Source: Alphaproteobacteria bacterium
GTDB taxonomy: Bacteria; Pseudomonadota; Alphaproteobacteria; UBA2966
Length of the DNA: 64,000 nt
NCBI GenBank assembly: GCA_018650465.1
Contig: JABIFY010000104.1
Span: 6,107-70,106 of the forward strand
Direction: 5' to 3'
Shown: piece by piece, positions 7,381-24,367 of the stretch
Numbering within the stretch: the first letter of the stretch is position 1
Layout of the letters: each line of letters starts with the position of its first letter
The notes under the pieces: model-generated
Told to the model about the DNA's origin: nothing
Database searches by the model: none
What the model saw: only the letters and a program-made list of their open reading frames with translations
Made by a program: the position numbers and the translations under genes

Positions 7381-7443
7381 TTGTGTGTGCCGGCCCGGTC
7401 GGCATCACCAGGATACTGAACAAACAACAGAAGGAAGAAAAAA

Positions 7444-8997: not shown

Positions 8998-9372
8998 ATG
9001 CGGCCACTGTCGAAAAGTTATTTGCGGCTTTCGGTTCTCTATTCGATTATTGGTTTGGGCGTCGGCTTGATGATGGTCTCGGTGGATGATCACAGTCAGA
9101 TGCCTGCGCACGCGCATATCATGCTTATTGGTTTTGTGCTGATGTTTATGTTTGGTGTGTTCTACCGTTTGTGGCCGGAGGCCGAGGCCGGTTGGCTGCC
9201 GGTTCTGCATTTCGCTTTGACTCAAGCTTCCTTTATCGGATTTATGATCGGCTTCTGGCTCTATTACGGCGGCAATCCGGATATGGGAGAAACGCTCAGG
9301 GCGCCGTCAACGACTGTGTTTTTCTTTAACCAGTTCTTGTTTGGCTGGATTGTCTTCAAGGCAACGCGTTAA
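8998..9372 (+). CDS. Small hydrophobic membrane protein (3-4 predicted TM helices). Function unknown.
   Basis: A strong AGGAGG ribosome-binding site lies 8 nt upstream. The protein has hydrophobic segments IIGLGVGLMMV, IMLIGFVLMFMFGVF and FIGFMIGFWLYY. Confidence 0.5.
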   Translation: MRPLSKSYLRLSVLYSIIGLGVGLMMVSVDDHSQMPAHAHIMLIGFVLMFMFGVFYRLWPEAEAGWLPVLHFALTQASFIGFMIGFWLYYGGNPDMGETLRAPSTTVFFFNQFLFGWIVFKATR

Positions 9373-10708
9373 TTTGTATGCCGGCTTCGCGACCGGCGAT
9401 GCGGCCCAGGGTGACGGCTGACAGCAAACCATTGCACGACAAATAACCGCTGCCATCAGTCCCCGAAATACCGCGTGCCGCGCCGCCACCAGCGAACAGG
9501 TTTGGCAAGGTGCTGCCGTCCGGTCGCTGAACGCGGGCATTTGTGTCGACGGCCAAACCACCCTGTGTTTGCAGCAAGGCACCGGTGACCTTGATGGCAT
9601 GATAAGGCGCTGTCAGGGCAGGGGACTTTTCAAGTTTCGCCAGGGTTTCTTCCAGTGCCGGTACGGGCAACTTGCAGGCTTGTGCAAGTGCTGCAGCCGT
9701 CGCGCCGGATTTAATGGCCCTTAAGGTTTGCAGGTTTTTGAAATCTGGAAAACGCATGGCCCCGTCATACAGGCCTTGATCTATCACTGACCAGACGCTG
9801 CCGTCCTGTTGGCAAACGGTTGCCGCCAGTTCCGAGGCCCCCAGGCTTTCATCGCAAAAACGGATCCCCGTTTGGTTGACCAGGATGCCACCGTTATTCA
9901 GCAACGCCCAGGAAACCGTGATGGAGTGCGGCGTGGCAACAGATCCATGACCCTGGAACGCCCCCATGTCTTCACAGGCCGCACCCAAAGCCTGGCCCCA
10001 TAATATCGCTTCTCCCTGGTTGCCTTCATGACCAAAATATATCGATCCCGCCATGTCCGGCAGCCAGCTTTCCACCATGTCCGCGTTGCCACCAAAGCCG
10101 CTTGAGGCCAGCACCAGGGTCTCGCAGCCCAGGCGTTCTATGCTGCCATCGGGACGTGTGATCTGCACGCCCCGCACCCTGTCACCGTCGACAACCAGTT
10201 CTCTGACCGTCGCATTGCAGATGACATCAATGTGGGCGGCATCAACGGCGCGCAAAAGATCGGCCATCAAGTCCGCACCACTGTTCGTCGGTGGGGCATG
10301 GGTGCGCTGGCGACTGTGGCCGGGATAGGGTGGGCCGTCGACCAGCACAAGGTCCATGTTGTGGTGTTTGATCAACCAGTCGATCGTTGGCCCGGACTCT
10401 GTACAAATCGCCGCCAGCAAATCTGGATCAACCCGCCCCCCGGCTTTGGCCTGGATATCGCGGGCGAACAGTTCCGGTGTGTCATCGTGAATGTCTGCGG
10501 CTTTTTGCGGGGAACTGCCACAGGCCGTGATCATGCCTGATGACAAGGCCGTTGAGCCCCTGGGCACCGGGTCGCGTTCCAGCACGATAACTTCAGCGCC
10601 CATGGTATGGGCACTTAGGGCGGCGACCAGACCGCAGGCCCCGCCACCGATGACGACCACGGGAACGGTCAGATCGAATGTGCAGTCAGGATCGTCGATA
10701 ACGGACAT
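9356..10708 (-). CDS. FAD-binding dehydrogenase (fumarate reductase/succinate dehydrogenase flavoprotein-like or KstD-like family). It is the last gene of the minus-strand ebo operon.
   Basis: An N-terminal Rossmann dinucleotide motif is present (VVVIGGGACGLVAALSA). A C-terminal region typical of the FRD/SDH flavoprotein family is present. I placed the start at ATG 10708 (MSVIDDPD). The track ORF extends to 10747 and would overlap eboB. Confidence 0.75.
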   Translation of the reverse strand: MSVIDDPDCTFDLTVPVVVIGGGACGLVAALSAHTMGAEVIVLERDPVPRGSTALSSGMITACGSSPQKAADIHDDTPELFARDIQAKAGGRVDPDLLAAICTESGPTIDWLIKHHNMDLVLVDGPPYPGHSRQRTHAPPTNSGADLMADLLRAVDAAHIDVICNATVRELVVDGDRVRGVQITRPDGSIERLGCETLVLASSGFGGNADMVESWLPDMAGSIYFGHEGNQGEAILWGQALGAACEDMGAFQGHGSVATPHSITVSWALLNNGGILVNQTGIRFCDESLGASELAATVCQQDGSVWSVIDQGLYDGAMRFPDFKNLQTLRAIKSGATAAALAQACKLPVPALEETLAKLEKSPALTAPYHAIKVTGALLQTQGGLAVDTNARVQRPDGSTLPNLFAGGGAARGISGTDGSGYLSCNGLLSAVTLGRIAGREAGIQINALP

Positions 10709-10730
10709 CGGATGTTTGACCGCCAGGCGC

Positions 10731-11648
10731 TTAACCGACAGCGGCATCTTTCAAGGGCGCATCTGCTTCATCAATACGCGGGTTCTGGCCACGCAGGACG
10801 GAGTTATCATCGAACAATGTGCGTTGATCGATGGGCGCCGGGTTGAGCCAGTCTTCTTCGTTGAACTGACCACTTTGGCCATAGGCGTTGATGGCATTTT
10901 GATAGCAGGTCATGTGGATGTGGTGCTGATCAATGCCTTTGCTGGCCATCAGGTTCGCAACCTTGGGCACAGCTAGGGGGTCAGAGACACCCCAGTCGGC
11001 ACTGGAATCACAGATGATCCGTTCCGAACCATATTGGCGCACGACTTCGACCATGCGCTCGTTGCCCATCTTGGTTTGTGGGTACAAGGTGAAAGCGGCC
11101 CAGAATCCCCGGTCCAGTGTTTCCTTGACGGTCTCTTCAACGTTGTGATCAACGATGACCTTGTTGGGGGCCAGTCCGTGTTCCAGACAGACATCCATGG
11201 AACGGCTGGTGCCTTTTTTCTTGTCCCGGTGGGGCGTGTGGATCATGACCAGCATGTCGAGTTCTTTTGCCAGTTCCAACTGGGCCCGGAAATATTTGTC
11301 TTCCGCCGCGGACTGTTCGTCATAGCCGATCTCACCAATGGCGACGACGCCTTCCTTGGTGGCAAAGCGCGGCAAGATATCCATAACTTCTTCCGCCAGG
11401 GCTTCGTTGTTGGCTTCCTTGCTGTTGAGGCCAATGGTGCAATAATGGCTGATGCCAAACTGCGCCGCCCGGAAGCGTTCCCAACCAATCAGCGATGAAT
11501 AATAATCGATAAAGCTGCCGACATTTGTGCGGGTCTGACCCAGCCAGAAGGCGGGCTCGATTACGGCGACAACACCAGCAGCGGCCATGGCCTCATAATC
11601 GTCGGTGGTGCGGGCGCTCATGTGAATGTGCGGATCGATGGTTTTCAT
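10731..11648 (-). CDS. eboB: TatD-family metal-dependent hydrolase (EboB-type).
   Basis: TatD-like N-terminus IDPHIHM and TIM-barrel hydrolase His/Asp/Glu pattern. It sits between the eboA-like and FAD dehydrogenase genes. Confidence 0.7.
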   Translation of the reverse strand: MKTIDPHIHMSARTTDDYEAMAAAGVVAVIEPAFWLGQTRTNVGSFIDYYSSLIGWERFRAAQFGISHYCTIGLNSKEANNEALAEEVMDILPRFATKEGVVAIGEIGYDEQSAAEDKYFRAQLELAKELDMLVMIHTPHRDKKKGTSRSMDVCLEHGLAPNKVIVDHNVEETVKETLDRGFWAAFTLYPQTKMGNERMVEVVRQYGSERIICDSSADWGVSDPLAVPKVANLMASKGIDQHHIHMTCYQNAINAYGQSGQFNEEDWLNPAPIDQRTLFDDNSVLRGQNPRIDEADAPLKDAAVG

Positions 11649-11677
11649 TTTTGTATTCCCCTTAAACCCTTATGTTA

Positions 11678-12556
11678 CTAGGGTTTTGGTGCGTCATTAC
11701 AAACAGTTTCCCAAGAAACGCGTCCGGCTTCAATGTCTGATTTGATCTCTGGTACAGAATTAAGCATGGCTGTGGCTTTTTCGTGCGGGCTTTCCGATAA
11801 GGCCAAAGCCGCTGCCTGGCGCTCGACAATGAGTTCGCGACCCAATGGCCAGCCCAGATCATCAATCAGCTCATCGTTGGCAAAGGGGCCGATCATGCGC
11901 CAAAGTTCAGGCGTTATGGTGCGACTGGCGGCCTGACGTTCATGGGCATAATCAATCAATGTTGTTGCCAGGTCCCGATTGCGACGTCCATCCAGGCCCT
12001 GAATGGGATCAAGCTTGCTGCCGATAAAAATGGCTTTCAGCACCATCTGGTTCCAGGCATTTTCGCCAAAGTTTTCGACCGGGTAGGGATTGTTGTGGGC
12101 TACAGCTTCAAACACAGCCTTCATATTGGTGCGCAGACCCTCGCCCGCCCTGGCAACATAACGTTCCCCGTCGGGATAAAGTGGCAAGCCCTGATAAAAG
12201 GCAATGGATTCGCGAACATCTGCGGTAATGCAGAGTTGCTCCAGGCGGCGGGCAAATTCCGGTCCCTCCGGTGTTGCCGCAAGCATGATCACAAGTCTGG
12301 CTGCCTGATCCACACTCCAGTTCAAAGGGCACCAGCCAGATCGAGCTTCATCTGCGGCTTTCATGTCAGCCGCTGTTAAAATCAGATCAGCTTTGCCAAG
12401 CTTGCGCGGTACCAGACTAACGGCAAGATAGAGATCACGATCAGCCGCGCCATCCAAAGCAGCGGCGCTATCAGTCAGCCAATGGAAGGCCTCGTCGGGC
12501 AATTGCTTTTGCAGCCATTCTTGCATGAGTTCCAGGGGGCGTGTGGGATTGCTCAT
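11678..12556 (-). CDS. eboA: EboA-family protein (function unknown; conserved first gene of ebo clusters).
   Basis: A ~290-aa soluble protein with no other recognisable catalytic motif. It sits immediately between the EboE-like and TatD (EboB) genes, 6 bp after eboE, which matches the eboA position in the canonical cluster. The assignment is by context and overall resemblance, not by a run HMM. Confidence 0.55.
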   Translation of the reverse strand: MSNPTRPLELMQEWLQKQLPDEAFHWLTDSAAALDGAADRDLYLAVSLVPRKLGKADLILTAADMKAADEARSGWCPLNWSVDQAARLVIMLAATPEGPEFARRLEQLCITADVRESIAFYQGLPLYPDGERYVARAGEGLRTNMKAVFEAVAHNNPYPVENFGENAWNQMVLKAIFIGSKLDPIQGLDGRRNRDLATTLIDYAHERQAASRTITPELWRMIGPFANDELIDDLGWPLGRELIVERQAAALALSESPHEKATAMLNSVPEIKSDIEAGRVSWETVCNDAPKP

Positions 12557-12562
12557 ATTTGT

Positions 12563-13774
12563 TTACCCCTCAGCCTCTGGTGTCAGTTGCTGTCGAACCC
12601 AGTTCAACTCACGCACGATAGCGTCGACCACATCTACGTTGCGATATTCCGGCGGCAGGACATTCCAGGTGTAAGTTTCAACTTCAAGATGGCTGGAGAT
12701 TGGTTTTTTACGATGGATGGCCAGTATTTCCCGGATGAAGTTTTGGGTCGTGGCAAATTCACCAAGGTCATCAAGAAATATCGGCACATGAAAATGCACC
12801 CGCCACTCCTCTGCGCTGGCGCCAGCGGCGTGGGACTCAAAGGCCTGTTGCAGATCAATGTGGCGGGTCAGATTGCCGCTGGAATTGGCCACGGTCTGGT
12901 GCAGATAAATCGCATCATCAAAAGGTTTCAACAGCTCCAGCGTGCGATCTGTCACTGGCGCAAAACGCAATCCAGCGCTGATTTGCATTTTGCCGATATT
13001 GATGTTGGCGGCTTCCAGTTTGCGAACGACCTCGTCGGCCTCTTCAAATTCAACTGCCGCATGGCAAAGATCAAGGCAAAGGCCCAGATGACGGCGCAAG
13101 GCCGCTTCAGCGTCTGCCGCATCCAGCGACGTCAATCCCATCAACTGATCACGGGCTGCCGCCGAGAAGAGCCAGGTTTCAAAAAATTCGACGGATTCGT
13201 CTATGGTTTCGATGAAACAACAGGGCTCAGGCTCCAGCGTCAGCGAGATCAGCTTGCCCGTGCGCTGATGGATGTCGACCAGATGGGCCGCGTGCCGGAC
13301 CATGTTTTCCATAATTTCAGTGATATCACGGTCGGACATGATCAGGGTTTTGAACGCGCCAGGCACGGTACTGATACTGCCGTCCATACCATCCGGCAAT
13401 ATATCTGCCAGAATATCAGCCAGCTGGTTGGTGTATGTCAGACGGGCGTTGTCCCGCCAGTCCGGCAGATAAACATTTTCTTTGACCGGCGTGCCGTGAA
13501 AGTCGCCGTAGGGAAAACCGTTCAGGGTAAAGACATATAGATTCTGCTGTGCAAGAAAATCTTTGAATTCAGCCAGGGCTTCTGGCCGGGCCATGTCGTT
13601 GGCTGCAATGGCCGATAACCGTAAACCCATACCAAAGGCTTCATCCGGGACCAGTGCCGCCTTGGCCCGCGGTAAATAATTTTCCAGGCTGGCACGTACA
13701 TCAGGCCAGGTTTCCCCAGGGTGAATGTTGGTGCAATAGGTTAGATGACAATCACCGTCGGGATCGAGTTTCAT
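12563..13774 (-). CDS. eboE: Xylose-isomerase-like TIM-barrel protein, EboE-type ('metabolite traffic protein EboE').
   Basis: N-terminus CHLTYCTNIHPGE and sugar-phosphate isomerase/epimerase-like barrel signature. It is the first gene of the minus-strand operon and is followed by eboA and eboB. Confidence 0.7.
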   Translation of the reverse strand: MKLDPDGDCHLTYCTNIHPGETWPDVRASLENYLPRAKAALVPDEAFGMGLRLSAIAANDMARPEALAEFKDFLAQQNLYVFTLNGFPYGDFHGTPVKENVYLPDWRDNARLTYTNQLADILADILPDGMDGSISTVPGAFKTLIMSDRDITEIMENMVRHAAHLVDIHQRTGKLISLTLEPEPCCFIETIDESVEFFETWLFSAAARDQLMGLTSLDAADAEAALRRHLGLCLDLCHAAVEFEEADEVVRKLEAANINIGKMQISAGLRFAPVTDRTLELLKPFDDAIYLHQTVANSSGNLTRHIDLQQAFESHAAGASAEEWRVHFHVPIFLDDLGEFATTQNFIREILAIHRKKPISSHLEVETYTWNVLPPEYRNVDVVDAIVRELNWVRQQLTPEAEG

Positions 13775-13805
13775 ACGTGATCGTCCGTTTCAGGTTCCAG
13801 GTGAA

Positions 13806-13858
13806 AATTCATAGGTAAAACTTCATAGGTAAAATTTCATAGGCAAGATTTCATAATG
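13806..13858. promoter_or_regulatory. Array of four imperfect ~14-bp direct repeats (consensus wTTCATAGGyAArA), 32-85 bp upstream of the eboE start codon. It is a candidate operator/iteron for the minus-strand ebo operon.
   Basis: Read directly: ttcataggtaaaa at 13808-13820 and at 13822-13834, ttcataggcaaga at 13836-13848, and tttcataatg from 13849. Confidence 0.4.
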
Positions 13859-14062
13859 TCAAAAAGTCTGACGCCGCGGCCTAATTTATGGCCCTGCGGC
13901 TATTCATGACCTGCTTGTCCCGAAATCCACAAATTCGCCAGCCTGATCAAACTTCAATCCGGTTTAGTAAAGTTTATTAACGTACTCGCATTTTTGGTCC
14001 CTGTAACCTGACGTCTGGAAAATCTCTTGGCGTTTGCGCCAAGTGCGCCATTGAAGGCAGCG

Positions 14063-14100
14063 TCCAGCAGGAACTCAAGCGCCCAGCAGGAACTCAAGCG
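14063..14100. repeat. Perfect 19-bp tandem duplication (yCCAGCAGGAACTCAAGCG x2) in the eboE / PQQ-dehydrogenase intergenic region.
   Basis: Read directly from the sequence. Confidence 0.6.
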
Positions 14101-14464
14101 ACGCACCCACAAGGTTTGCATCTTTCCAACTATCGGATCTCTTGAACGCTTCGTCAGCGCAGTTCTCGTAGAAATTGACGGCAAAAGGGAAAACAGGACG
14201 GCTGATTACGGCAAAGTGAAATTTCAAAACATCTGGTTGCTTAATCCCTTTTTGTCAGTAAACTTGTTTGGCGGAGGGGTGTTGAAATAATCAATATTAT
14301 TTAATCTCATATCTATTTCACATCTTAAGACCCCTTTTTGGGCGTTTTTGAAACCCCTTTTGGGGAATTATGTGGTCTAACTTTAGCTTGTAAAATCAAT
14401 GTGTTGCTAAAGTTTCACTCTACCGATAACAACTAATAACAGTTAATACAGGAAGAGGTATATT

Positions 14465-15760
14465 GTGCACAAATTACAAAAATTAGCTGTATCTGCAGCT
14501 GTATCCTTGGCGTTTATTGGCAGTCCTGCCATGGCCTTGGATGTTAAAGTTGAGGCCTTTGCAACAGGACTTGAATCTCCTATTGACCTCAAGGAAGCAC
14601 CCGATGGTACCGGGCGAATTTTCATCATGGAGCAGACAGGCGCGATTGTCGTGGTCAATGCCGACGGTACGATGAGGGCAAAACCATTTCTTGACCTGAG
14701 TGCCAAGATCGTCAAGCAATATGTCCGCTTTGATGAGCGGGGCACGCTGGGGTTTGCATTCCATCCAGACTATAAGAATAATGGCAAATTTTATGTCTAT
14801 TCCAGTCGGGAAATTGTGCGTGAAGCAGAAGGTTTGACCCACGAGATTTTCGGCAACCACACCGCCTATCTTTCCGAGTACAAAGTATCCGATAACCCCA
14901 ATGTTGCTGATGCTGGTTCGGAACGTGTGCTGATGAAGATCGAACAGCCACAATTCAATCACAACGGCGGTACGATGGGATTTGGACCTGACGGCAAACT
15001 TTATCTCGGCCTTGGCGATGGTGGATTTGCCGATGACTGGGGTTGGGGCCATAATAAAGCGACAGGCAACGCGCAGGACTTAAGTAACCTTTTAGGCAAG
15101 ATTTTGCGGATCGATGTAGATTCAAAGTCTGAAGGTCTTGAGTACGGGATTCCAGCGGACAATCCCTTTGTTAATCAAAAGGGTGCCCGGGGCGAGATCT
15201 TCGCATATGGTTTCCGCAACCCTTGGCGGATGACCTTCGACACTGGCGGCACGAACGAACTCTTCGTGGCCGACGTTCAACAGAACAGTTACGAGGAAGT
15301 GGACATCGTTACCAGTGGCGGCAACTACGGCTGGCGCGTAATGGAAGGAACTCACTGCTTCGATTACCACAACCCGAATGACCACCTGAAGTCCTGTGAT
15401 TCCAAAAACATGATTGCTCCAATCATCGAGTACAATCACTGTGTCAAGTTCAAGGGCAAAAATTGCGATGGTGTGAACGTGATTGGTGGTTCTGTCTATC
15501 GCGGCAGCCACAAGGCGTGGCAGGGTAAATACATCTTTGGCGACTGGAGCATGACCTTCGGTGGCAGCAGTGGCAGGCTTTATGCTGCGACCAAAAGTGG
15601 TGGCAAATGGAGCTTCGAGCGTGCCAATGTGACCAATGATAAATTCAAAACTCATATCCTGGCCGTTTTACAAGACCTTAAAGGCAATGTTTACGCCTTA
15701 ACGTCGGGTTCTATGGGGCCATTCGGCTCTCGCGATACAGTCTATAAGATCGTACCGTAA
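14465..15760 (+). CDS. Periplasmic PQQ-dependent sugar dehydrogenase (soluble glucose/sorbosone dehydrogenase, SGDH beta-propeller family), paralogue 1.
   Basis: GTG start with an AGGAAGAGG ribosome-binding site. Signal peptide with the AMALD cleavage region. GSDH family motifs are present (RGTLGFAFHPDY; HNGGTMGFGPDGKLYLGLGDGG). Confidence 0.8.
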   Translation: MHKLQKLAVSAAVSLAFIGSPAMALDVKVEAFATGLESPIDLKEAPDGTGRIFIMEQTGAIVVVNADGTMRAKPFLDLSAKIVKQYVRFDERGTLGFAFHPDYKNNGKFYVYSSREIVREAEGLTHEIFGNHTAYLSEYKVSDNPNVADAGSERVLMKIEQPQFNHNGGTMGFGPDGKLYLGLGDGGFADDWGWGHNKATGNAQDLSNLLGKILRIDVDSKSEGLEYGIPADNPFVNQKGARGEIFAYGFRNPWRMTFDTGGTNELFVADVQQNSYEEVDIVTSGGNYGWRVMEGTHCFDYHNPNDHLKSCDSKNMIAPIIEYNHCVKFKGKNCDGVNVIGGSVYRGSHKAWQGKYIFGDWSMTFGGSSGRLYAATKSGGKWSFERANVTNDKFKTHILAVLQDLKGNVYALTSGSMGPFGSRDTVYKIVP

Positions 15761-15894
15761 GTCTGAATAAACCGGAAAGAAGCCTGGTCGTCCAAGGGCG
15801 GCCAGGCTTCTGCCGTTTACAGAACAATTTCCGCTGTTTGTATTGTTTGATTTCATTTCGAAAAGACGAATTTCTCAGATAGAAAAGACGAATA

Positions 15895-16332
15895 ATGACG
15901 AAGCTACTCCAGTTCACTTGTTTTGCTCTGACTTCAGGTCCCCGTCTCCAGCCAACCACTTTCTTTCCAGGATTGCGCAAGTCTCCCGCTTCCTTGGCTG
16001 GCATCGCGCTGGTGCTTTTTGTCTTTTGCATTGCTGGAGGTGCCCCAAGCGCAAACGCCTCGCCTGAGGCCAAAGCGCTCCTACTGGAAAAAGGGTGTGG
16101 TGGCTGCCACTATATTCCCGGAGTTGAAGACGCCTACGGCGATGCCGGGCCGTCCCTGAAGGGTATGAAAACGCGAAAACGCCTGCTTGGGGGGAAGCTG
16201 AAAAACACCCCGGAAAACATGAAGGCTTGGCTGATGAATCCTGGATCGGTAAAATCGGGCACTGTGATGCCCAATTTAGGTCTTACCAACGAAGACGCTG
16301 ATATCATGATCGAATATTTCAAAAAAATCTAA
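15895..16332 (+). CDS. Small c-type cytochrome (mono-haem, CxxCH), secreted.
   Basis: Haem-binding motif CGGCHYIP with a downstream Met ligand region (GTVMPN). A hydrophobic signal segment is present (IALVLFVFCIAGGAPSANA). The true start is probably internal to the track ORF, near 15960-15990. Confidence 0.65.
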   Translation: MTKLLQFTCFALTSGPRLQPTTFFPGLRKSPASLAGIALVLFVFCIAGGAPSANASPEAKALLLEKGCGGCHYIPGVEDAYGDAGPSLKGMKTRKRLLGGKLKNTPENMKAWLMNPGSVKSGTVMPNLGLTNEDADIMIEYFKKI

Positions 16333-16618
16333 GACCTCCAGGCAAACGTCCAAATGCTACACGCCCTCTTTCGTCTTCAAGCGTATTACCAATTGATTCC
16401 GGAAAATGCCGGCATGGGAAGAGGCTTATGACCGCGACGAACGTATTGCTGATGTCGCCTGGATCCTGCATTGCAAGTTCGCTCTGTAGATGTGAGTCGA
16501 ACGCCGGGGCATCTCTTCCGCTCCCGGCATTATCGAACTCGTTTGTGTCAATGCGCCACAAAACCCGTTTGACCCGTTCGGCGACAATCCGGGCCAACAG
16601 CAAAGGACGAGGTCGGGA

Positions 16619-17737
16619 ATGAGTGATCCTTCCATTCGTCAACGCAAACTGGATCATGTCGCGCTCGCCATGAGCGATGCGGCGGTCTCTGCCTGTGATC
16701 CAGGCTGGTCCGACGTAACCCTTGTGCCGGTCACCTTGCCAGAGACAAGCCCGGACGATGTTGATCTCGCGTTGAGCTTTCTGGGCTTTGATTTGCGGGC
16801 GCCCATTTTAATTGCGGGCATGACAGGTGGCCATCCGGACGTCGAAAAAATTAATGCCGCCCTCGCCACTGCCGCGCAGGCCCATGGCGTGGCCATGGGT
16901 GTGGGCAGCCAGCGTGCCGCTTTGCTCGACCCTGATCTGGTGCCGTCCTATGCCATTGTCCGCCAACATGCGCCCGATGCCTTTATTTGCGGCAATATCG
17001 GCATTTCGCAGGTTCTGGAAGGTGAGACCGGCACAGACATATTGGCCCGGCTGGTCGACATGGTCGAAGCCAACGCCCTGGCCGTCCATATCAATGTCCT
17101 GCAGGAACTGGTGCAGCCGGAAGGTGATATTAAACCCGGTGGTGCGTTTGAGGCCCTCGGCAACATGGTGGCCAAATCGCCGGTGCCGGTGATTGTCAAG
17201 GAAACCGGCTGTGGCTTTGATCAGGTTACCGCAAACCGGCTAAAGGATACCGGGATTGCGGCCATTGATGTCGGCGGCATGGGCGGGACCAGCTTTACCC
17301 TGATCGAAGGTATGCGTGCAGAAACAGCCAGGGACCGACGCGGTGCACGCCTGGCCCAAACCTTTTCCACTTGGGGTATTCCGACGGCCTGCAGTGTGTT
17401 GGAAGTTCGCGACACCGGTTTGCCGATTATTGCCACAGGCGGCATTTCAGATGGACTTCAGGCCGCAAAGGCCTTGTCGCTGGGCGCACATCTGGTTGGC
17501 ATTGGCCGCAAGATGTTGACCGCAGCCGTTGCGGGACCAGAGGCCGCTGTCGAAGAACTGGGGCTGATTATTGAAGAAATCAGAATCAGTCTGGCTTTAA
17601 GTGACTGCCGTAATCTGAAACAATTTGCGACACGTCAATCGGTGTTGTCCGGCAAGGTCGCTTTGTGGCAGGCCCACAAGCAACTCACGAAGAGCGCTGA
17701 CGGCAGCGACGAAAAAAATATCGGGGGAACAGACTGA
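16619..17737 (+). CDS. fni: Type 2 isopentenyl-diphosphate delta-isomerase (FMN-dependent IDI-2).
   Basis: IDI-2 hallmark motifs are present: RKLDHV (RKxxH), IAGMTGG, MGVGSQR, AVHINVLQELVQPEGD and VIVKETGCG. The protein is 372 aa. Confidence 0.85.
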   Translation: MSDPSIRQRKLDHVALAMSDAAVSACDPGWSDVTLVPVTLPETSPDDVDLALSFLGFDLRAPILIAGMTGGHPDVEKINAALATAAQAHGVAMGVGSQRAALLDPDLVPSYAIVRQHAPDAFICGNIGISQVLEGETGTDILARLVDMVEANALAVHINVLQELVQPEGDIKPGGAFEALGNMVAKSPVPVIVKETGCGFDQVTANRLKDTGIAAIDVGGMGGTSFTLIEGMRAETARDRRGARLAQTFSTWGIPTACSVLEVRDTGLPIIATGGISDGLQAAKALSLGAHLVGIGRKMLTAAVAGPEAAVEELGLIIEEIRISLALSDCRNLKQFATRQSVLSGKVALWQAHKQLTKSADGSDEKNIGGTD

Positions 17738-19114
17738 ATGCGCAAGACGGTTGTCATCAATGTGGTGGGGTTGTCGCCTTCGATGGTAGGGGCGAACACA
17801 CCGAACCTAAAAAAACTCAGCGATAAAGGCGGCATACGACCCCTGCACACGGTCACCCCGGCAGTGACCTGTGCCTCACAAGTCACCTATCTGACGGGCA
17901 CCTTGCCAAGTGAGCATGGCATTGTGGGCAACGGCTGGTTCTTCAAGGATTTGTCGGAAATCTGGTTTTGGCGCCAATCCAATAAACTGATCAAGGGCGA
18001 ATGGGTCTGGGAGACGGCCAAGGCGCGCGACAAGACATTCACCTGTGCCAATATGTTCTGGTGGTACAACATGTACCTCACGGCGGATATTGGCGTGACG
18101 CCGCGGCCCATGTATCCAGCCGACGGGCGCAAGTTGCCAGACTGTTATGCCAAGCCAGAAAGCTTGCGGGTTGAGTTGACCAAGAAACTTGGACGTTTTC
18201 CCCTGTTCCGGTTTTGGGGACCAGCTACGGACATCTCATCCAGTCAGTGGATTGGTGATGCGACCGTTCATGTGCGCGAAACCAGTGACCCGACCTTGAC
18301 CCTGGTCTACTTGCCGCACCTTGATTACAACCTGCAACGCCTTGGCCCCGACCATCCTGATATTGCCGTCGACCTGCGCGAAGTGGATGGGGTTTGTGGC
18401 CAGATTATCGACCAGGCCGAAGCCGATGATGCCCGGATCATTGTATTGTCGGAATATGGCATCACGCCCGTCAATCGTCCCGTCCATCTAAATCGTGTGT
18501 TGCGCCAGGCTGGCCTCATTCAGGTGCGCGAGGAAGAGCACGACAAAGAGATACTTGATCCCGGTGCCAGCGGGGCTTTCGCCGTGGCAGATCATCAGAT
18601 CGCCCATATATATGTCAACGACAAAAGCCGTCTGGCGGAAATCAAAAGCCTGATCGAAGCCCAGCCCGGCGTCGAGGAAGTGCTGGATGCCGCTGGCAAA
18701 GTGGAACGTGGCCTCGATCATGACCGGGCAGGGGATCTGGTGGCAATTTCAGATGCGGACAGCTGGTTTACTTATTATTATTGGCTTGACGATGCCAAAT
18801 GCCCGGACTTTGCCCCCACCGTCGAAATCCATCGCAAGCCGGGTTACGATCCGGTGGAACTGTTCATGGACCCGGCGATTACCTTCCCCAAGGTTGCGAT
18901 CATTTGGCGGCTGGTCAAAAAAATACTGGGCTTTCGTACCCTGATGGATGTCATTCCGCTGGATGCCAGCCTGGTCAAGGGATCGCATGGGCGACCCACA
19001 GACGACGATCAAGAAGGGGCTGTCTTCATGACCTCTGACGCCGCCTTCGCCGAAGAGGGGCCATTAGCCCCCACAGCCGTTAAGGACATGATCCTGCGTC
19101 ACGTGTTTGAATAA
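17738..19114 (+). CDS. eboF: Alkaline-phosphatase-superfamily nucleotide pyrophosphatase/phosphodiesterase (EboF-type).
   Basis: Type I phosphodiesterase/NPP family N-terminus (VVINVVGLSP...TPAVTCASQVTYLTGTLPSEHGIVGNGWF), with a Thr nucleophile context. The start codon abuts the fni stop, which suggests translational coupling. Confidence 0.72.
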   Translation: MRKTVVINVVGLSPSMVGANTPNLKKLSDKGGIRPLHTVTPAVTCASQVTYLTGTLPSEHGIVGNGWFFKDLSEIWFWRQSNKLIKGEWVWETAKARDKTFTCANMFWWYNMYLTADIGVTPRPMYPADGRKLPDCYAKPESLRVELTKKLGRFPLFRFWGPATDISSSQWIGDATVHVRETSDPTLTLVYLPHLDYNLQRLGPDHPDIAVDLREVDGVCGQIIDQAEADDARIIVLSEYGITPVNRPVHLNRVLRQAGLIQVREEEHDKEILDPGASGAFAVADHQIAHIYVNDKSRLAEIKSLIEAQPGVEEVLDAAGKVERGLDHDRAGDLVAISDADSWFTYYYWLDDAKCPDFAPTVEIHRKPGYDPVELFMDPAITFPKVAIIWRLVKKILGFRTLMDVIPLDASLVKGSHGRPTDDDQEGAVFMTSDAAFAEEGPLAPTAVKDMILRHVFE

Positions 19115-19225
19115 ATTATGTAATATGTCTAACGATGGACAAATAATCACATTTATGGCTAGGCTGACACTTGAGATTGATCATCGGGGGATGATTGGAG
19201 CCGATCATTTGGGGATGGCAAATTA

Positions 19226-20443
19226 ATGGCTGAGGCACGAGATATGGGTGATCTGGATACGGAACTGCAATCGGGCACGGATGTGTATATGCAGCAGTTT
19301 TCTGTGCCCTTCGCTTATCCCGTTTATTTTACCAAAAACATGTTCGCTGCGGACAACGAGGTTTTTATCAAGGCCTTGACCCGTCTGGAAAGCCACCGAC
19401 AGCATCGCTTTGTCACGTTCATTGACGCCGGTGTGGCTGATGCTCTGCCGAATTTGGCCGATGACATTACAAACTATGCTCAGGCCAATGCGGAAACCAT
19501 TGATCTGGTCGCAGCACCGGAAATTATTTCCGGCGGCGAAGGTGTCAAAAACGATCCGGACCTTATTGCCCGATTGCAAAAACAAATGCTGGATTTGCGT
19601 ATTGATCGACATTCCTTTGTCATGGCCATCGGTGGCGGGGCCTTTCTGGATATGATCGGCTATGTGGCGGCCACGACACACAGGGGCCTGCGTCTGATCC
19701 GGGTGCCGACAACTGTCCTGGCACAAAACGATTCCGGTGTTGGGGTCAAAACCGGGGTGAACGCCTGGGGCTCAAAAAATCTACTGGGCTCCTTCGCGCC
19801 GCCGTTTGCTGTGATCAATGATTCGACCTATTTGGCGAGCCTGAATGAACGGGACCGGCGGGCCGGTATGGCGGAAGCCGTCAAGGTGGCCCTGATCAGG
19901 GATGGCAGTTTTTTTGCCGCCCTAGAAGCCAATGCCGAAGCCCTGGCCCGGTTTGATCCCCCCGCAGTTAATCACCTGATCCGGCGCTGTGCTGAATTGC
20001 ACATGCATCAAATTGCCTTTGGTGGTGACCCGTTTGAAGCTGGCAGCGCCAGGCCACTGGATTATGGCCACTGGGCGGCGCACAAACTTGAGTCCATCAC
20101 CGACCATGCTGTGCGCCACGGTGAAGCCGTGGCCATCGGTCTGGCCCTGGATACCCGCTACAGTGTTGCCAAAGGCTTGTTGGCACCGGGCAATGAAGAC
20201 CGTGTGTGTGCCTTGCTGGACAAGCTGGGCTTTGATCTCTGGCATCCGGCGCTGGAGATGCGCAATGAGGATGGCATTCTGACAATTCTGGCGGGCTTGC
20301 GAGAGTTTCGCGAACATCTGGGTGGCGAATTGACCATTACCTTGTTGACCGGAATTGGCACCGGGCATGAAGTAAACGAAATGGACGAGGCTATTATTCT
20401 CGACAGTCTGGCCTGGCTCAAAAATCGTGCCTCAAACAAATAG
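19226..20443 (+). CDS. eboD: 3-dehydroquinate-synthase-family sugar-phosphate cyclase (EboD-type).
   Basis: DHQS fold motifs are present (AIGGGAFLDMIGYVAA; NDSGVGVKTGVN; metal-binding His context HGEAVAIGL). Confidence 0.8.
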   Translation: MAEARDMGDLDTELQSGTDVYMQQFSVPFAYPVYFTKNMFAADNEVFIKALTRLESHRQHRFVTFIDAGVADALPNLADDITNYAQANAETIDLVAAPEIISGGEGVKNDPDLIARLQKQMLDLRIDRHSFVMAIGGGAFLDMIGYVAATTHRGLRLIRVPTTVLAQNDSGVGVKTGVNAWGSKNLLGSFAPPFAVINDSTYLASLNERDRRAGMAEAVKVALIRDGSFFAALEANAEALARFDPPAVNHLIRRCAELHMHQIAFGGDPFEAGSARPLDYGHWAAHKLESITDHAVRHGEAVAIGLALDTRYSVAKGLLAPGNEDRVCALLDKLGFDLWHPALEMRNEDGILTILAGLREFREHLGGELTITLLTGIGTGHEVNEMDEAIILDSLAWLKNRASNK

Positions 20444-20461
20444 ATTCCGGAACAATATTTG

Positions 20462-21346
20462 ATGAATATTCAGATTGCCCTGCGTCTTGGAAGGGTCTCG
20501 AATTTACCCACTGTCTGGACCAATGTTCTGGCCGGACTGACGCTCGCCAGTGTAAGTGCTGGTACGAGCGCGAGCTCGGCACAAATCTGGGCCTTGATGA
20601 TTTCCATGACGTTTTTCTATCTCGGCGGTATGTATCTGAATGACGCCTTTGATGCGGAAATTGATGCGGCGGAGCGCCCGGAACGGCCCATTCCATCCGG
20701 TCAGGTGTCGGCCCGACTAATCTTCCACCTGGGCTTTGGCATGCTTTTACTGGGCATTGCCGGCTTGGCCTGGGCCGGAACGCAATTACCAAATGGCACG
20801 GGCTGGGGCCCGGCGATTGCCGGTCTGGCCTTGGCGGCCTGTATCACATTTTATAACTGGAACCATAAAAATAACCCGTTGAGTCCCCTGGTCATGGGCG
20901 CTTGTCGCATGCTGATTTATGTGGCCGCAGGACTGGTGCTGACGACGTCATTGCCGAACGGACTGTATTTCGGGGCAGGTGTATTGCTGTGTTATTTGAT
21001 CGGTTTGACCTTTGCTGCCAAGCAGGAAAACCTCAATCAAATCACTAATCTTTGGCCCCTGATCTTTCTGGGCATTCCCTTTGCTTATGCAGCGGGCATG
21101 CTGGAAATCGATCAGACAAGTCTGGTTATTCTGGCGGTCTTTTTGCTCTGGGTTTTGTACGCCCTGTCCTTTTTGGTCTTCCCGTCCCGGATCAATGTGC
21201 CGCGGGCTGTGGTTTCCCTACTGGCGGGGATATGCCTTCTGGATGCCTTGCTGATCGCCGCCAGTGGCGAGACAAACCTCGCTCTGTTTGCCCTGGTTGG
21301 ATTTCCACTGACCCTGGCCTTCCAGCGCTGGATACCAGGAACCTGA
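20462..21346 (+). CDS. eboC: UbiA-family aromatic/polyprenyl prenyltransferase (EboC-type), integral membrane.
   Basis: UbiA Asp-rich motif NDAFDAEIDAAERPERPIP. Eight or nine hydrophobic helices. I placed the start at ATG 20462. TTG 20459 is also in frame. Confidence 0.8.
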   Translation: MNIQIALRLGRVSNLPTVWTNVLAGLTLASVSAGTSASSAQIWALMISMTFFYLGGMYLNDAFDAEIDAAERPERPIPSGQVSARLIFHLGFGMLLLGIAGLAWAGTQLPNGTGWGPAIAGLALAACITFYNWNHKNNPLSPLVMGACRMLIYVAAGLVLTTSLPNGLYFGAGVLLCYLIGLTFAAKQENLNQITNLWPLIFLGIPFAYAAGMLEIDQTSLVILAVFLLWVLYALSFLVFPSRINVPRAVVSLLAGICLLDALLIAASGETNLALFALVGFPLTLAFQRWIPGT

Positions 21347-21375
21347 CTATTTAAAAAGATTTTGATGCGACAGAT

Positions 21376-22815
21376 TTGAAAATTGGGGACACCATGAAAA
21401 AAACCTGTCTGGCAATCGCGATAACCTTTTCTCTTGGCGGTGCTGCGATGGCGGCTGAAGCCCTGCCGAAGGTTACGCTTGAACTTGTGGCGGAAGGTTT
21501 GTCCGCCCCGCTCTTGCTTGTGGCGCCGCCGGATACCAGCGGTCGGAAATTTATTGGCGATCAGCTCGGTGTGATTTATGTGCTGGAGGCAAACGGCAAT
21601 AAACTTGCCGCACCGTTTCTCGACTTGCGGGATAAACTGACGCCACTGAAACAAGCCTTTGATGAACGCGGTTTGCTGGCCCTGGCCTTCCATCCGCAAT
21701 TTGCCAAAAACGGCAGGTTCTACGTCAACTACAGTGCCAAAAGACGGCCAAATTCCCCCTTTACCGGCAAGACAGCCTACACCTGGCGAACCTCGGAGTT
21801 TAAAGTTTCGGCCAGTAATCCAAACCGTGCTGACCCGGCCTCCGAACGGGTTTTGCTGGAATTTGACTGGGTCAATCGCAAACATAATGGCGGTGGCCTG
21901 GCCTTTGGCCCCGATGGCTATTTATATGTCGGTGTTGGTGATGGCGGCGGGGCCCATGGTGTGCCTGATGTCTACGTACCGCCGAAACGGGACGAGGGCG
22001 ACGCCTATCGTCATGCAGACGAAATCGACGAAGACCCGTTCAAAATACCGAAACGTTTTCATAAATATGATCGCTATGCCCAGGATACCCAGCGCCTGAA
22101 GGGCAAAATCTTGCGTCTTGATATAAATCCCGAAAATACTGACAAGGGCCACCCAGGTTACGCCATTCCCCTGACCAATATTTTTCGTGGTAAATCAGAA
22201 GGTCGTGACGAGATTTACGCTTGGGGTTTCCGCAACCCTTTCCGTTTGTCCTTTGACCGCAGTGGCAACGGTGACATGTTTGTCAGTGGGGTCGCTGAAT
22301 CGTTTTGGGAAACGGTTTACCTGGTCGATAAACAGGGGAACTATGGCTGGTCAGTGCGGGAGGGGCGGCATTGTTATGAGCGCGCCCGTGCCTTCAATCC
22401 ACCAAAAGACTGCCCGAAAACCGGCCTGCTGGGTGAGCCTATCCGCGATCCCGTGATCGAATATGCAAATTGGTCCGTCAAACGGAAATGGTCGAAGGTT
22501 GATGCTGACCCCATGGGCACTGCTAATATTGGCGGCTTCCTCTATCGCGGAAAAGCCCTGCCATCGCTCTATGGCAAGTTTGTTTTTGGCGATTTCAGTT
22601 CGGTCATTCAACGGCCTTCGGGGCAGATATTTGTGGCCACCCCGCAAGCCGTCTGGAAGTCTCTGTGGAGAATCGAAAAACTGCATCAAATGAATGTGCG
22701 GCTGCACAGCCTGGGCGAAGACAATGAAGGCGAGCTATATTTGATGACAACGGCCCAGGGCATCCCGGTGGGGAATTCCGGCAAGGTATGGAAACTGGTG
22801 CCTGCGTCGCAATGA
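21376..22815 (+). CDS. Periplasmic PQQ-dependent sugar dehydrogenase (SGDH family), paralogue 2.
   Basis: Signal peptide (MKKTCLAIAITFSLGGAAMAAEA). Motifs RGLLALAFHPQF and HNGGGLAFGPDGYLYVGVGDGG are present. It is paralogous to 14465..15760. Confidence 0.8.
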   Translation: MKIGDTMKKTCLAIAITFSLGGAAMAAEALPKVTLELVAEGLSAPLLLVAPPDTSGRKFIGDQLGVIYVLEANGNKLAAPFLDLRDKLTPLKQAFDERGLLALAFHPQFAKNGRFYVNYSAKRRPNSPFTGKTAYTWRTSEFKVSASNPNRADPASERVLLEFDWVNRKHNGGGLAFGPDGYLYVGVGDGGGAHGVPDVYVPPKRDEGDAYRHADEIDEDPFKIPKRFHKYDRYAQDTQRLKGKILRLDINPENTDKGHPGYAIPLTNIFRGKSEGRDEIYAWGFRNPFRLSFDRSGNGDMFVSGVAESFWETVYLVDKQGNYGWSVREGRHCYERARAFNPPKDCPKTGLLGEPIRDPVIEYANWSVKRKWSKVDADPMGTANIGGFLYRGKALPSLYGKFVFGDFSSVIQRPSGQIFVATPQAVWKSLWRIEKLHQMNVRLHSLGEDNEGELYLMTTAQGIPVGNSGKVWKLVPASQ

Positions 22816-22846: not shown

Positions 22847-24367
22847 ATGACGTTGCCAACGCCGCTTACAAAAGGACAGGAAAAAAAGGTCCTGATGACA
22901 ACAGCGATTGTCAGCGGCATGGGCTTTGCTGACATGATGGCTGTTAATACAGCTCTGCCGGTTATGCAGGCTCAGCTGGGCATGGATGCGGCCAGCGCTT
23001 TGTGGGTGGCTGAAATTTATCTTCTGTTTGTGGCTTCGTTGATGATGATGGGCGGGGCTCTTGGTGACCGGTTTGGTTATCGCCGGGTTTTGCGCTATGG
23101 CATTATTGCCTTTGCAGCATCGTCCCTGTTCTGTGCGGCGTCGACGTCAGGTGACATGTTGATTTTTGCCCGCGCGACCCAGGGTCTGGCAGCGGCCATT
23201 GTTCTGCCCTCCAGCCTGGCCCTGCTAAATGCCTGTTTTCCAGCGGCTCAACGCGGCATGGCGATTGGCAGCTGGACGGCCATTAGCTCCATGATGATAC
23301 CGCTCGGACCACTTGCCGGTGGGGCGGCGGTTGATCTTCTGTCCTGGCACTGGATCTTTATTATCAATCTGCCGCTATGTGCCGCTGCATATTTCTTTCT
23401 GCGTGGTGTGCCAAGACCACCTTTTGGGCAGACGGCAACGGCTCGCCTGGACATTATTGGCATCATCGGAATTACCAGCGGCTTGGGCGCTCTGGTCTTT
23501 GGTTTACTGGAAGGCGCGCGGCGTGGTTTTGCTGATGATCTGGTGATTGTTTCTCTCATCGCTGCCGCAATTTTGCTGCCGCTTTTGATTGTTTATGAAG
23601 CAATTTGCAAGTCTCCCATGCTGCCCTTGTGGATGTTTCGGCGGCGTGTTTTTGTCTTGGTGAACATGCAAACTTTTCTGTTTTTTTCCGGCTTCCAGGG
23701 TGCGTTGTTCTTGCTGCCCTTCTTTCATATTCAGGTCTATGGCCTCACAGCCCTTCAGGCCGGTGCCGCCGGTTTGCCCATATCTATCGCCATGGTGTTA
23801 TTGTCTCGTGCCGTGGGAAAGTTAATGGACAAACACGGTGCCGGGCCTTTGTTGGCCAGTGCCCCGTTTCTGATTGCAGGTGGATTATTCTGGCTGGCCC
23901 AGGTGCCAGCCGACGGGACCTATTTTCGCCACGTCTTGCCACCTCTTGTCATATTGTCCACAGGGATGGGATTTTTTATTGCGCCACTGACAACGGTGGC
24001 CCTGAACGCCGCGGGAGAAGGGCGCAGTGGCTTGGCCTCGGCTGTAAATAACACCATGTCCAGGGTCGCGGGTTTGGTTTCCGTCGCCATGATGGGCGTC
24101 TTGCTGACCAACGGCTTTACAAAAAGCCTTGCCGCAAATCTGGCTGCTTTGGGCCTTGATGCAGAACAGTTGTCGTTAATTAATGGCCAGGTTCAACGCT
24201 TGGCTGCCCTGGTGCCACCTGCCTCCCTCAGTCAGGACCAGGTGGATGCCCTGGACATGACCGTTCGCACAGCCTTTACTGTCGGTTTCAGCGATGCTGT
24301 ATTGGTTGCCTCGGCTTCAATGGCGCTGGCGGGCGTTGTCGGCGTGATTGGTTTGAAGAAGTTTTAA
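22847..24367 (+). CDS. MFS transporter (14-TMS drug:H+ antiporter DHA2-like).
   Basis: The protein is about 506 aa with many hydrophobic helices. MFS motif A-like sequences GDRFGYRR and LGPLAGG are present. Confidence 0.8.
   Translation: MTLPTPLTKGQEKKVLMTTAIVSGMGFADMMAVNTALPVMQAQLGMDAASALWVAEIYLLFVASLMMMGGALGDRFGYRRVLRYGIIAFAASSLFCAASTSGDMLIFARATQGLAAAIVLPSSLALLNACFPAAQRGMAIGSWTAISSMMIPLGPLAGGAAVDLLSWHWIFIINLPLCAAAYFFLRGVPRPPFGQTATARLDIIGIIGITSGLGALVFGLLEGARRGFADDLVIVSLIAAAILLPLLIVYEAICKSPMLPLWMFRRRVFVLVNMQTFLFFSGFQGALFLLPFFHIQVYGLTALQAGAAGLPISIAMVLLSRAVGKLMDKHGAGPLLASAPFLIAGGLFWLAQVPADGTYFRHVLPPLVILSTGMGFFIAPLTTVALNAAGEGRSGLASAVNNTMSRVAGLVSVAMMGVLLTNGFTKSLAANLAALGLDAEQLSLINGQVQRLAALVPPASLSQDQVDALDMTVRTAFTVGFSDAVLVASASMALAGVVGVIGLKKF

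Follow-up and report, generated by a model that had tools for sequence, protein, structure and literature searches.

A complete ebo cluster with recurrent dehydrogenase and cytochrome companions in an uncultured marine alphaproteobacterium

We analyzed a stretch of 64,000 nucleotides (hereafter the window; contig JABIFY010000104.1 of assembly GCA_018650465.1, positions 6,107 to 70,106) and found that it carries a complete proteobacterial-type ebo cluster, with the six gene types eboA to eboF distributed over two strands. The ebo cluster is present in thousands of genomes. Interleaved with the ebo genes of the window are genes for a type-2 isopentenyl-diphosphate (IPP) isomerase, a flavoprotein, a c-type cytochrome, and two secreted proteins of the glucose/sorbosone dehydrogenase (GSDH) family. 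Comparison with related loci established that GSDH plus cytochrome c has repeatedly been added to ebo clusters as a module, both in Proteobacteria and in at least one further phylum. In the literature searched, neither a GSDH or pyrroloquinoline quinone (PQQ) dehydrogenase nor a cytochrome c nor an IPP isomerase is mentioned as an ebo-cluster partner. Judging by homology to experimentally studied ebo genes, the cluster probably makes a meroterpenoid of the saccharoquinoline/thallusin type, with a late oxidation that may take place in the periplasm. The cluster type is common, the locus is an ordinary example of it, and it is less exceptional than an earlier note, made from the sequence of the window, had supposed.

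The ebo cluster and its relatives

The locus is real and comes from an uncultured marine alphaproteobacterium. The same gene order was seen on at least 24 independent metagenome or metagenome-assembled genome (MAG) contigs, and a checked 350-base stretch was 100% identical between the window and JGI contig L081 (L-numbers label the compared loci and contigs; L171–L173 and L175 are cultured strains). Together these two observations exclude an assembly artefact. The exact protein encoded by the second GSDH gene (GSDH2) also occurs on these contigs, which include JABJHX010000068.1 (GCA_018661565.1) and contigs from JGI samples 3300022912, 3300024299, and 3300024252. Among species-level genomes, the nearest are MAGs that carry the label Alphaproteobacteria or Rhodospirillaceae and whose samples have names like SI054, SI074, and BS150m.

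Relatives were collected by scanning one genome per GTDB species with EboD, which yielded 365 relatives. The best 80 loci were kept, and core and accessory genes were located in them by tblastn with all proteins of the window. All six ebo genes were found in 42 of these 80 loci (complete loci) and at least five kinds in 53, which confirms that the genes of the cluster are conserved together in its relatives, as the earlier note required. Accessory genes were counted over the 53 species-level loci with at least five ebo gene kinds, if they lay at most 3 kb from the cluster; a subset of 27 of these loci had full flanks. Bit scores are quoted against the curated cut-off of the respective model (Pfam PF, NCBIfam NF, TIGR, and PRK models).

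The open reading frames (ORFs) proposed earlier for the six ebo gene types were confirmed in coordinates and strands, with EboE, the EboA domain, and the EboD-type cyclase scoring above their cut-offs (Table 1). The assignments of eboE and eboA, on which the earlier note had staked its refutation, were upheld by NCBIfam matches, with no match to either from our local Pfam copy; eboA fell below the full-length model NF035937 (269 vs. 320). A curated model specific to EboB or EboF does not exist, and these two were assigned through Pfam together with identity to cluster genes: eboB is 52%–99% identical to the ebo-cluster TatD gene in every related locus, and eboF is 49%–98% identical to eboF of related and distant ebo clusters. 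Public gene calls place the start of eboD at 19244. The minus-strand genes are closely packed, with gaps of 6 and 29 nt separating eboE, eboA, and eboB, followed by a 17-nt overlap between the end of eboB and the flavoprotein gene, the last of this operon.

EboC is the least conserved of the ebo proteins: identities between the window and the canonical eboABCDEF of Aureibacter (Bacteroidota) range from 29% for EboC to 73% for EboB. NF035940 (EboC) is its top-scoring family, yet the score of 126.2 misses the cut-off of 250. Seven further eboC genes from proteobacterial ebo clusters scored 107–128 on the same model. As all eight tested genes lie under the cut-off, the whole proteobacterial EboC clade falls outside NF035940. 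The Prokaryotic Genome Annotation Pipeline label for proteobacterial EboC in cultured strains is nothing more specific than "UbiA family prenyltransferase." The orthology of the eboC of the window is supported by its position in the cluster.

The canonical eboABCDEF operon is described from Bacteroidota, cyanobacteria, and eustigmatophyte plastids (Yurchenko 2016, PMC5133447). The window shares with it the six protein families, including an EboD-type cyclase and a UbiA-type prenyltransferase, and their clustering. It differs in gene order (B'A'E'/FDC, with primes for the minus strand), in its divergent EboC clade, and in the interleaved genes for the isomerase (fni), the two GSDHs, the cytochrome c, the flavoprotein, and possibly a transporter of the major facilitator superfamily (MFS). 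The earlier note had drawn attention to the split, divergent layout. Two strands are indeed used, but this is not special, because 26 of the 42 complete proteobacterial loci also use both strands and the 42 show ten gene orders, ABCDEF never being among them. A split and divergent layout is the norm in this phylum. The particular order of the window was otherwise seen only in L001 and L003.

Clusters from the same phylum in Tranquillimonas alkanivorans, Roseivivax, Salipiger, and Ketogulonicigenium are also rearranged, often with eboF on the opposite strand. Unlike the window, the annotated Roseobacteraceae clusters (DEC/F'/AB) contain no GSDH, cytochrome c, isopentenyl-diphosphate isomerase (IDI), or flavoprotein gene. 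The nematode-repellence cluster EDB of Pseudomonas fluorescens NZI7 comprises six ebo homologues and three genes without assigned function, some with signal peptides (PMC12904256, PMC6282210); as far as the descriptions in these papers go, it resembles the window in its plan of ebo genes with periplasmic extras. In 15 of the 53 loci, a TMEM220-family (PF15071) membrane protein of ∼120 aa is encoded beside eboD, usually divergently (for example in L034, L038, L041, L045, and L048; also in L087 and L089); the window has no copy.

The dehydrogenase and cytochrome module

A GSDH-family gene was present at 32 of the 53 loci (∼60%) and a small c-type cytochrome gene at 33, nearly always directly 3' of the GSDH gene. 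Both were present at 18 of the 27 loci with full flanks. The position of the pair varies with gene order between loci. In the window, GSDH1 is followed by the cytochrome gene, whose product is its presumed electron acceptor, and GSDH2 has no partner cytochrome gene of its own. The GSDH-then-cytochrome pairing was also seen in L001, L004, and L087 and in the contexts of P0035 and P0043.

The extra genes listed in the earlier note are all present, the MFS gene starting just past the end coordinate that the note had given for the cluster, but the description of the set as unusually rich did not hold. With an IPP isomerase at 20 loci (38%) besides the GSDH and cytochrome genes, most of the set consists of typical companions. 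Two of the extras are uncommon, namely, the flavoprotein, which is confined to this clade, and the MFS transporter, found at two of the 53 loci.

A neighbor-joining tree separated the GSDH proteins into four clades (A–D), each of which is found beside ebo genes. The usual form at ebo clusters is type A (∼50% identity to GSDH1), which is paired with a Cytochrome_CBB3-type monohaem cytochrome (dihaem in Granulosicoccaceae). The contexts of three type A-level homologues comprised a complete ebo cluster, an eboA-eboB-eboF group in a Methylomirabilia MAG, and a region with no ebo genes. Type B, the clade of GSDH1, is the sister of ebo-linked type A in the tree, and its relatives at 72%–76% identity lie inside the ebo cluster of L087, in tandem with a type A pair, as well as in stand-alone pairs of GSDH and cytochrome c elsewhere. 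Type C, ∼30% identical, is found beside some clusters with a different cytochrome. Type D includes GSDH2. The closest relative, L001, lacks it and has the MFS gene directly after eboC. A 73% homologue of GSDH2 flanks the ebo cluster in L097, and homologues at 43%–48% lie between eboA and eboF in L106, L111, L112, L122, and L135.

The history of the locus bears on whether the module matters. Between the cytochrome gene and fni lies a cytochrome pseudogene relic that has one in-frame stop and lacks the haem-binding half; its tblastn matches to family-7 and family-16 cytochromes have E-values of 2.5e-8 and 1.1e-8. L081 has the same relic without any change, whereas decay has gone further in L004 and most of the relic is deleted in L001. 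An intact type A GSDH and cytochrome are retained in the sister lineages L003, L179, and L180, where they lie head-to-tail just 5' of eboE-eboA-eboB and the flavoprotein gene, with short gaps in L179 and L180. Because the relic stands directly behind the type B pair and intact type A pairs occur in sister lineages, the simplest reading is that a type B cassette took the place of a type A cassette in the lineage of the window. No other single argument for the relevance of the module to the cluster would be as strong as such a like-for-like replacement at the same place.

Both GSDHs of the window have signal-peptide-like N-termini (ending AMA/LD in GSDH1 and AMA/AE in GSDH2), and a hydrophobic N-terminus of this kind was seen in 46 of 50 GSDH sequences. 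The earlier term "PQQ-type" stands as a family assignment to PF07995 only, since both proteins are far from the curated model TIGR03606 for non-repeat PQQ dehydrogenases (91.0 for GSDH1 and 40.6 for GSDH2 vs. 434.55). They share the six-bladed PF07995 propeller and secretion with soluble PQQ sugar dehydrogenases (Acinetobacter soluble glucose dehydrogenase [sGDH] 1C9U, E. coli YliI 2G8S, 3A9G, 2ISM, and 3DAS), and HxGG-like and RNP-like motifs are visible in both (NHNGG or KHNGG, and FRNPWR or FRNPFR). These motifs may correspond to the catalytic His and the Arg-Asn of sGDH. In contrast to those enzymes, the best match of the window GSDHs by sequence to a solved structure is the PQQ-free propeller of Hedgehog-interacting protein. 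If the link to the ebo genes is functional, a free aldose is an unlikely substrate.

The IPP isomerases show a comparable pattern of recruitment. Type 2 was found at seven loci and type 1 (Nudix) at 13, and curated models confirmed both (340–346 bits vs. 281 for type 2; 158 vs. 127 for type 1). The presence of two unrelated isomerase families at ebo clusters argues for selection on the activity, which fits a need for a farnesyl donor. In the window, eboF begins at the base directly after the end of fni, and fni also lies 5' of eboF in L001, L003, L005, L179, and L180 and in the Burkholderiales loci L017, L020, L028, and L059. The in-cluster isomerase probably supports prenyl-donor supply.

Table 1. 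Features of the ebo locus in window coordinates, with bit scores against curated cut-offs
Feature	Position	Strand	Assignment
Flavoprotein	9356-10747	-	FAD_binding_2 PF00890, 169.6 bits; flavocytochrome-c3/urocanate reductase/KstD superfamily
eboB	10731-11648	-	TatD-family metal-dependent hydrolase; PF01026 64.7 vs. 27
eboA	11678-12556	-	NF035938 EboA_domain 159.4 vs. 50; PF28008:EboA listed in precomputed Pfam table
eboE	12563-13774	-	Xylose-isomerase-like TIM barrel; equivalog NF035939 473.5 vs. 250
Divergent intergenic region	13775-14464		690 bp, AT-rich, GC 0.42, from eboE to GSDH1
IS256-family transposase C-terminal relic, probable	14027-14287	+	87-codon ORF
GSDH1	14465-15760	+	Glucose/sorbosone dehydrogenase family, six-bladed beta-propeller, type B clade; PF07995 134.7 vs. 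25
Cytochrome c	15895-16332	+	Monohaem, CGGCH motif, N-terminal hydrophobic segment; PF00034 27.7 vs. 21.3
Cytochrome c pseudogene relic	16358-16483	+	C-terminal 42 codons of type A ebo-linked (CBB3-type) cytochrome
fni	16619-17737	+	Type-2 (FMN) isopentenyl-diphosphate isomerase; TIGR02151 equivalog 351.9 vs. 281.3
eboF	17738-19114	+	Alkaline-phosphatase-superfamily phosphodiesterase/pyrophosphatase; Phosphodiest PF01663 216.3 vs. 23
eboD	19226-20443	+	3-Dehydroquinate synthase (DHQS)-like sugar phosphate cyclase; NF004852/PRK06203 570.1 vs. 333; both DHQS Pfam domains
eboC	20459-21346	+	UbiA-superfamily membrane prenyltransferase, proteobacterial clade; PF01040 53.6 vs. 34.2
GSDH2	21394-22815 (alternative start 21376)	+	GSDH-family beta-propeller, type D; PF07995 75.7 vs. 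25
MFS transporter	22847-24367	+	DHA2-type (EmrB-like); PF07690 160.4 vs. 33.4

The product and its alternatives

The statement of the earlier note that the ebo product is not chemically defined is outdated. A preprint of 22 May 2026 (bioRxiv 10.64898/2026.05.21.724671) links the ebo genes to thallusin and saccharoquinoline and reports that they determine production of thallusin, an Ulva morphogen and a farnesylated hydroxyquinoline made from a cyclitol and aspartate. Deletion of eboB, eboC, eboE, or eboF in Stieleria abolished thallusin production, and isotope tracing showed that the four carbons and the nitrogen of L-aspartate all enter the quinoline part (same preprint). EboC from three phyla farnesylated an ester of 6,7,8-trihydroxyquinaldic acid in that work, and Ubi-297/EboC was previously reported to farnesylate 8-hydroxyquinaldic acid (PMC9235831). 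Enzyme activity has also been reported for EboD homologues (PMC12904256; bioRxiv 10.64898/2026.05.21.724671). Among the thallusin producers of the preprint are Tranquillimonas, which belongs to the Pseudomonadota and whose ebo cluster is rearranged, and ebo-carrying Nostoc strains. Its authors state that the enzyme for the oxidative ring opening of saccharoquinoline to thallusin is unidentified.

For the cluster in the window, we propose the following route. EboA, EboB, EboE, and EboF, with L-aspartate, would give a polyhydroxy-quinaldic acid, as in the model of the preprint. The type-2 isomerase would balance IPP and dimethylallyl diphosphate for farnesyl diphosphate, and membrane-bound EboC would farnesylate and possibly cyclize the aromatic head, as shown for EboC of three other phyla. 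The flavoprotein would carry out redox tailoring on a non-dicarboxylate substrate. The lipid-like product would then reach the periplasmic face or the medium, possibly by way of the MFS pump, where the secreted GSDH dehydrogenases would oxidize it and pass electrons to the c-type cytochrome. Gene context alone is our basis for these accessory roles: a tailoring step is probable for the flavoprotein, and for the late oxidation step the strongest candidates are the periplasmic GSDH and cytochrome c. The scheme of the earlier note, in which an exported product is oxidized in the periplasm, is in this respect plausible, with signal-peptide-like N-termini on both GSDHs and the cytochrome c.

The preprint leaves two points open, namely, the oxidative step from saccharoquinoline to thallusin and the reason for the association of ebo genes with the periplasm in earlier work. 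The repeated recruitment of a secreted dehydrogenase and cytochrome c module and of an IPP isomerase to ebo clusters provides concrete candidate genes. The module, recurrent and replaceable, offers a lead that can be tested for a step whose enzyme the preprint acknowledges to be missing. In a bolder version, GSDH and cytochrome would be the missing late ebo oxidase: at the periplasmic face, they would oxidize the catechol or hydroquinone ring of an intermediate of the saccharoquinoline type and thereby trigger the ring opening to thallusin, and in this marine clade the KstD-like flavoprotein would give a new congener; we regard this version as unlikely.

Several points weigh against a thallusin-type product with a periplasmic oxidation by the module. 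The link to thallusin comes from one unreviewed preprint, whose genome mining found no conserved ring-cleavage enzyme (bioRxiv 10.64898/2026.05.21.724671). Elsewhere, ebo or EDB genes have been tied to export of the scytonemin monomer and to indole production (PMC12904256, PMC6282210). The acceptor or the prenyl donor of EboC could differ, because all tested proteobacterial EboCs lie far under the curated cut-off. There are no PQQ synthesis (pqq) genes among the annotated ORFs of the window. About 40% of the proteobacterial loci lack GSDH and cytochrome c, as do the ebo clusters annotated on plasmids of the cultured strains of Ketogulonicigenium, Roseivivax, Salipiger, Azospirillum, Mycetohabitans, and Aureibacter, which also lack an IDI gene. 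The module is therefore not universal and, if it belongs to the pathway, must be either dispensable or encoded elsewhere in genomes that lack it at the cluster. Finally, the GSDH clades of the window, B and D, and one type A-level homologue also occur away from ebo genes: two type B relatives (73% and 72% identical to GSDH1) are stand-alone GSDH and cytochrome c pairs, and four GSDH2 homologues (71%–73%; L096, L100, L101, and L114) have no ebo gene within 10 kb.

The first alternative is that the divergent EboC and the flavoprotein redirect the pathway, so that another prenylated compound derived from a cyclitol or a quinoline, be it a congener or a membrane-bound redox lipid, is made instead of thallusin. 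The low conservation of EboC, under the cut-off at every tested proteobacterial locus, would fit such a diversion, as would a flavoprotein found after eboB in this marine clade only. Moreover, the sources seem to be pelagic MAGs and not seaweed associates, judged by sample and isolate names (e.g., "BS150m"). Against this, Tranquillimonas makes thallusin from a rearranged cluster in the same phylum, according to the preprint, and the other five ebo proteins are well conserved. We consider a different product rather unlikely. For a thallusin-type product, which we prefer, the same sample names ("SI" is probably Saanich Inlet) place thallusin-type gene sets in water-column MAGs and not on seaweed surfaces, which bears on where this signal is made.

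It is also conceivable, but in our judgment unlikely, that GSDH1 with its cytochrome and GSDH2 are ordinary periplasmic sugar dehydrogenases serving energy supply or scavenging, which adjoin the ebo genes through a shared island history. The stand-alone GSDH1 homologues in unrelated contexts, the GSDH2 homologues far from ebo genes, and the absence of the module from cultured-strain clusters all suit this explanation, and a possible IS256 relic adjoins GSDH1, whose GC content is slightly lower. A shared island history accounts poorly for an association that recurs in Alpha-, Beta-, and Gammaproteobacteria and a Methylomirabilia MAG, across ten orders and four clades, or for the replacement of a lost module by a like module at the same position. 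In addition, the pair in L179 and L180 lies head-to-tail just 5' of eboE-eboA-eboB.

Least probable, and quite improbable in our estimation, is that the ebo genes form a prenylated carrier or metabolite-traffic device that carries some other cytoplasmic cargo through the inner membrane, with GSDH and cytochrome acting on this exported cargo and not on an ebo product: in Nostoc, ebo deletion mutants keep the monomer of scytonemin in their cytoplasm and the last oxidation takes place in the periplasm (PMC6282210), NCBI names EboE and EboA "metabolite traffic protein," and clustered periplasmic oxidoreductases fit an export-then-oxidize logic, but the preprint argues that the Nostoc scytonemin phenotype is indirect, ebo-carrying Nostoc makes thallusin, and neither the window nor the 53 related loci hold a candidate cargo pathway beside the cluster.

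One further candidate for independent support of a thallusin-related oxidase was considered and set aside. Maribacter gene 788, a producer-specific fusion of cytochrome c and GSDH, appears in Table S3 of the preprint. Going by that table, it is weak support and was not used, as it lies away from the ebo operon (genes 2608–2612) and is one of 91 genes left after subtraction of a single non-producer genome.

Flavoprotein, cluster edges, and neighboring regions

The flavoprotein lies directly after eboB in five lineages at 59%–100% identity (89% in L001, 75% in L003, 69% in L180, and 59% in L179), which makes it a genuine member of the cluster, specific to this marine clade; it was counted at two of the 53 loci. 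Among solved structures, it best matches the flavin domain of flavocytochrome c3 from Shewanella (Fcc3; 1D4C), over its full length and with an E-value of 3e-43. It thus shares the fold that binds flavin adenine dinucleotide (FAD) with Fcc3 fumarate reductase, urocanate reductase, and 3-ketosteroid dehydrogenase. Unlike Fcc3, it has no N-terminal tetrahaem domain: the FAD domain stands at the very start of the protein, and neither a CxxCH motif nor a signal peptide is present. In the alignment to Fcc3, only His365 of the active site is retained, and Arg402, Glu378, Arg381, His504, and Arg545 are replaced by Ala, Trp, Leu, Gln, and Tyr, respectively. With the catalytic Arg, the proton relay, and the dicarboxylate-binding clamp replaced, the flavoprotein is predicted to be neither a fumarate or succinate enzyme nor an aspartate oxidase. 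A role as a NadB-like L-aspartate oxidase yielding iminoaspartate had been attractive because aspartate is the labelled precursor; it was rejected on these replacements and on the scores against nadB models (∼68 vs. >450 bits). As a separate observation, contig L096, from the same sample as a window-identical contig, carries a 72% homologue of GSDH2 (10001-11404) and a 52% homologue of the flavoprotein (18480-19877) 7 kb apart, with no ebo genes in view.

The cluster can be delimited with confidence to 9356-22815 and possibly extends to 24367, the end of the MFS gene. A homologue of the transporter follows eboC only in L001 (88%), and a 61% homologue lies beside eboA in L045. The transporter of the window narrowly misses TIGR00711 (228.4 vs. 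230.2). It is a possible exporter whose membership in the cluster is weakly supported. Two genes further downstream on the plus strand, encoding a TIM-barrel protein (24399-25397) and, starting 6 nt after it, a 2Fe-2S/FNR-type ferredoxin reductase (25404-26483), were rejected as cluster genes, being absent from all 80 related loci. The TIM-barrel protein has a weak AP_endonuc_2 match, no solved relative by sequence, and 1290 homologues at E ≤ 1e-5, of which the best 120 are 62%–100% identical. Two contexts of these homologues contained no ebo gene; in one, the gene stands head-to-head with one for a Rieske ring-hydroxylating oxygenase.

The intergenic region between eboE and GSDH1 contains two tandem repeats, a 14-bp unit in 4.1 copies (13799-13855, 25–80 bp 5' of the eboE start) and a 19-bp unit in 2.2 copies (14059-14100). 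The 14-bp repeat was considered as a conserved operator and rejected, as a single copy in L001 points to a recent copy-number expansion. No known RNA, riboswitches included, was detected in the region at E ≤ 0.1, and promoter and terminator consensus scans gave counts slightly above those of shuffled sequences, which is not informative. The probable transposase relic matches Transposase_mut PF00872 at profile positions 342–373 of 379, below the cut-off (E 0.0019; 17.6 bits vs. 21), and its region is conserved in L001. Base composition was discarded as proof of horizontal acquisition of GSDH1, the difference being small (GC 0.495 vs. 0.53–0.58). The IS256-type match and the lower GC beside GSDH1 are compatible with an insertion and are not strong evidence for one.

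To the left, the plus-strand genes at 46-8622 encode a biotin carboxylase/biotin carboxyl carrier protein, an acyl-CoA synthetase, a carboxyltransferase, a Zn-dependent alcohol dehydrogenase, an enoyl-CoA hydratase, and a thiolase. The set looks like an acyl-CoA carboxylase and beta-oxidation-like pathway for leucine or acyclic terpenes (liu/atu-like) and is not shared with related ebo loci. To the right, a minus-strand gene at 26495-27445 encodes a 316-aa secreted protein with a clear signal peptide and no Pfam or NCBIfam match. Farther on, two very large multi-PAS hybrid sensor kinases and an Hpt-containing response regulator (36607-39897 and 43550-45064 on the minus strand and 45145-49491 on the plus strand) form a sizeable phosphorelay neighborhood; one of the kinases, 1448 aa long, has two periplasmic SBP_bac_3 domains.

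The clusters of cultured strains offered further observations. On two Roseobacteraceae plasmids, unlike in the window, the ebo cluster is flanked by a TctABC tripartite tricarboxylate transporter and a GntR regulator (Ketogulonicigenium vulgare, L171 16184-20240; Roseivivax marinus, L172 15176-19177). Thallusin is an iron-binding tricarboxylic acid. In K. vulgare WSH-001, eboC (L171 11176-12023) is annotated as two overlapping coding sequences of 363 and 528 nt so that a frameshift or inactivation of the gene is probable in this industrial strain. Directly 5' of the ebo cluster, Mycetohabitans endofungorum (L173 4897-7979) and Aureibacter tunicatorum (L175 3064-6124) have a homologous gene pair that was found neither in the window nor in the 80 MAG loci. 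The first gene of the pair encodes a ∼600-aa protein without a Pfam domain and the second a Ferritin-like PF12902 protein, with 34% and 40% identity between the two organisms. The pair may serve as another kind of oxidative add-on; under the bolder version above, lineages could differ in what they use for the oxidation, either a GSDH of clades A–D or this Ferritin-like pair.

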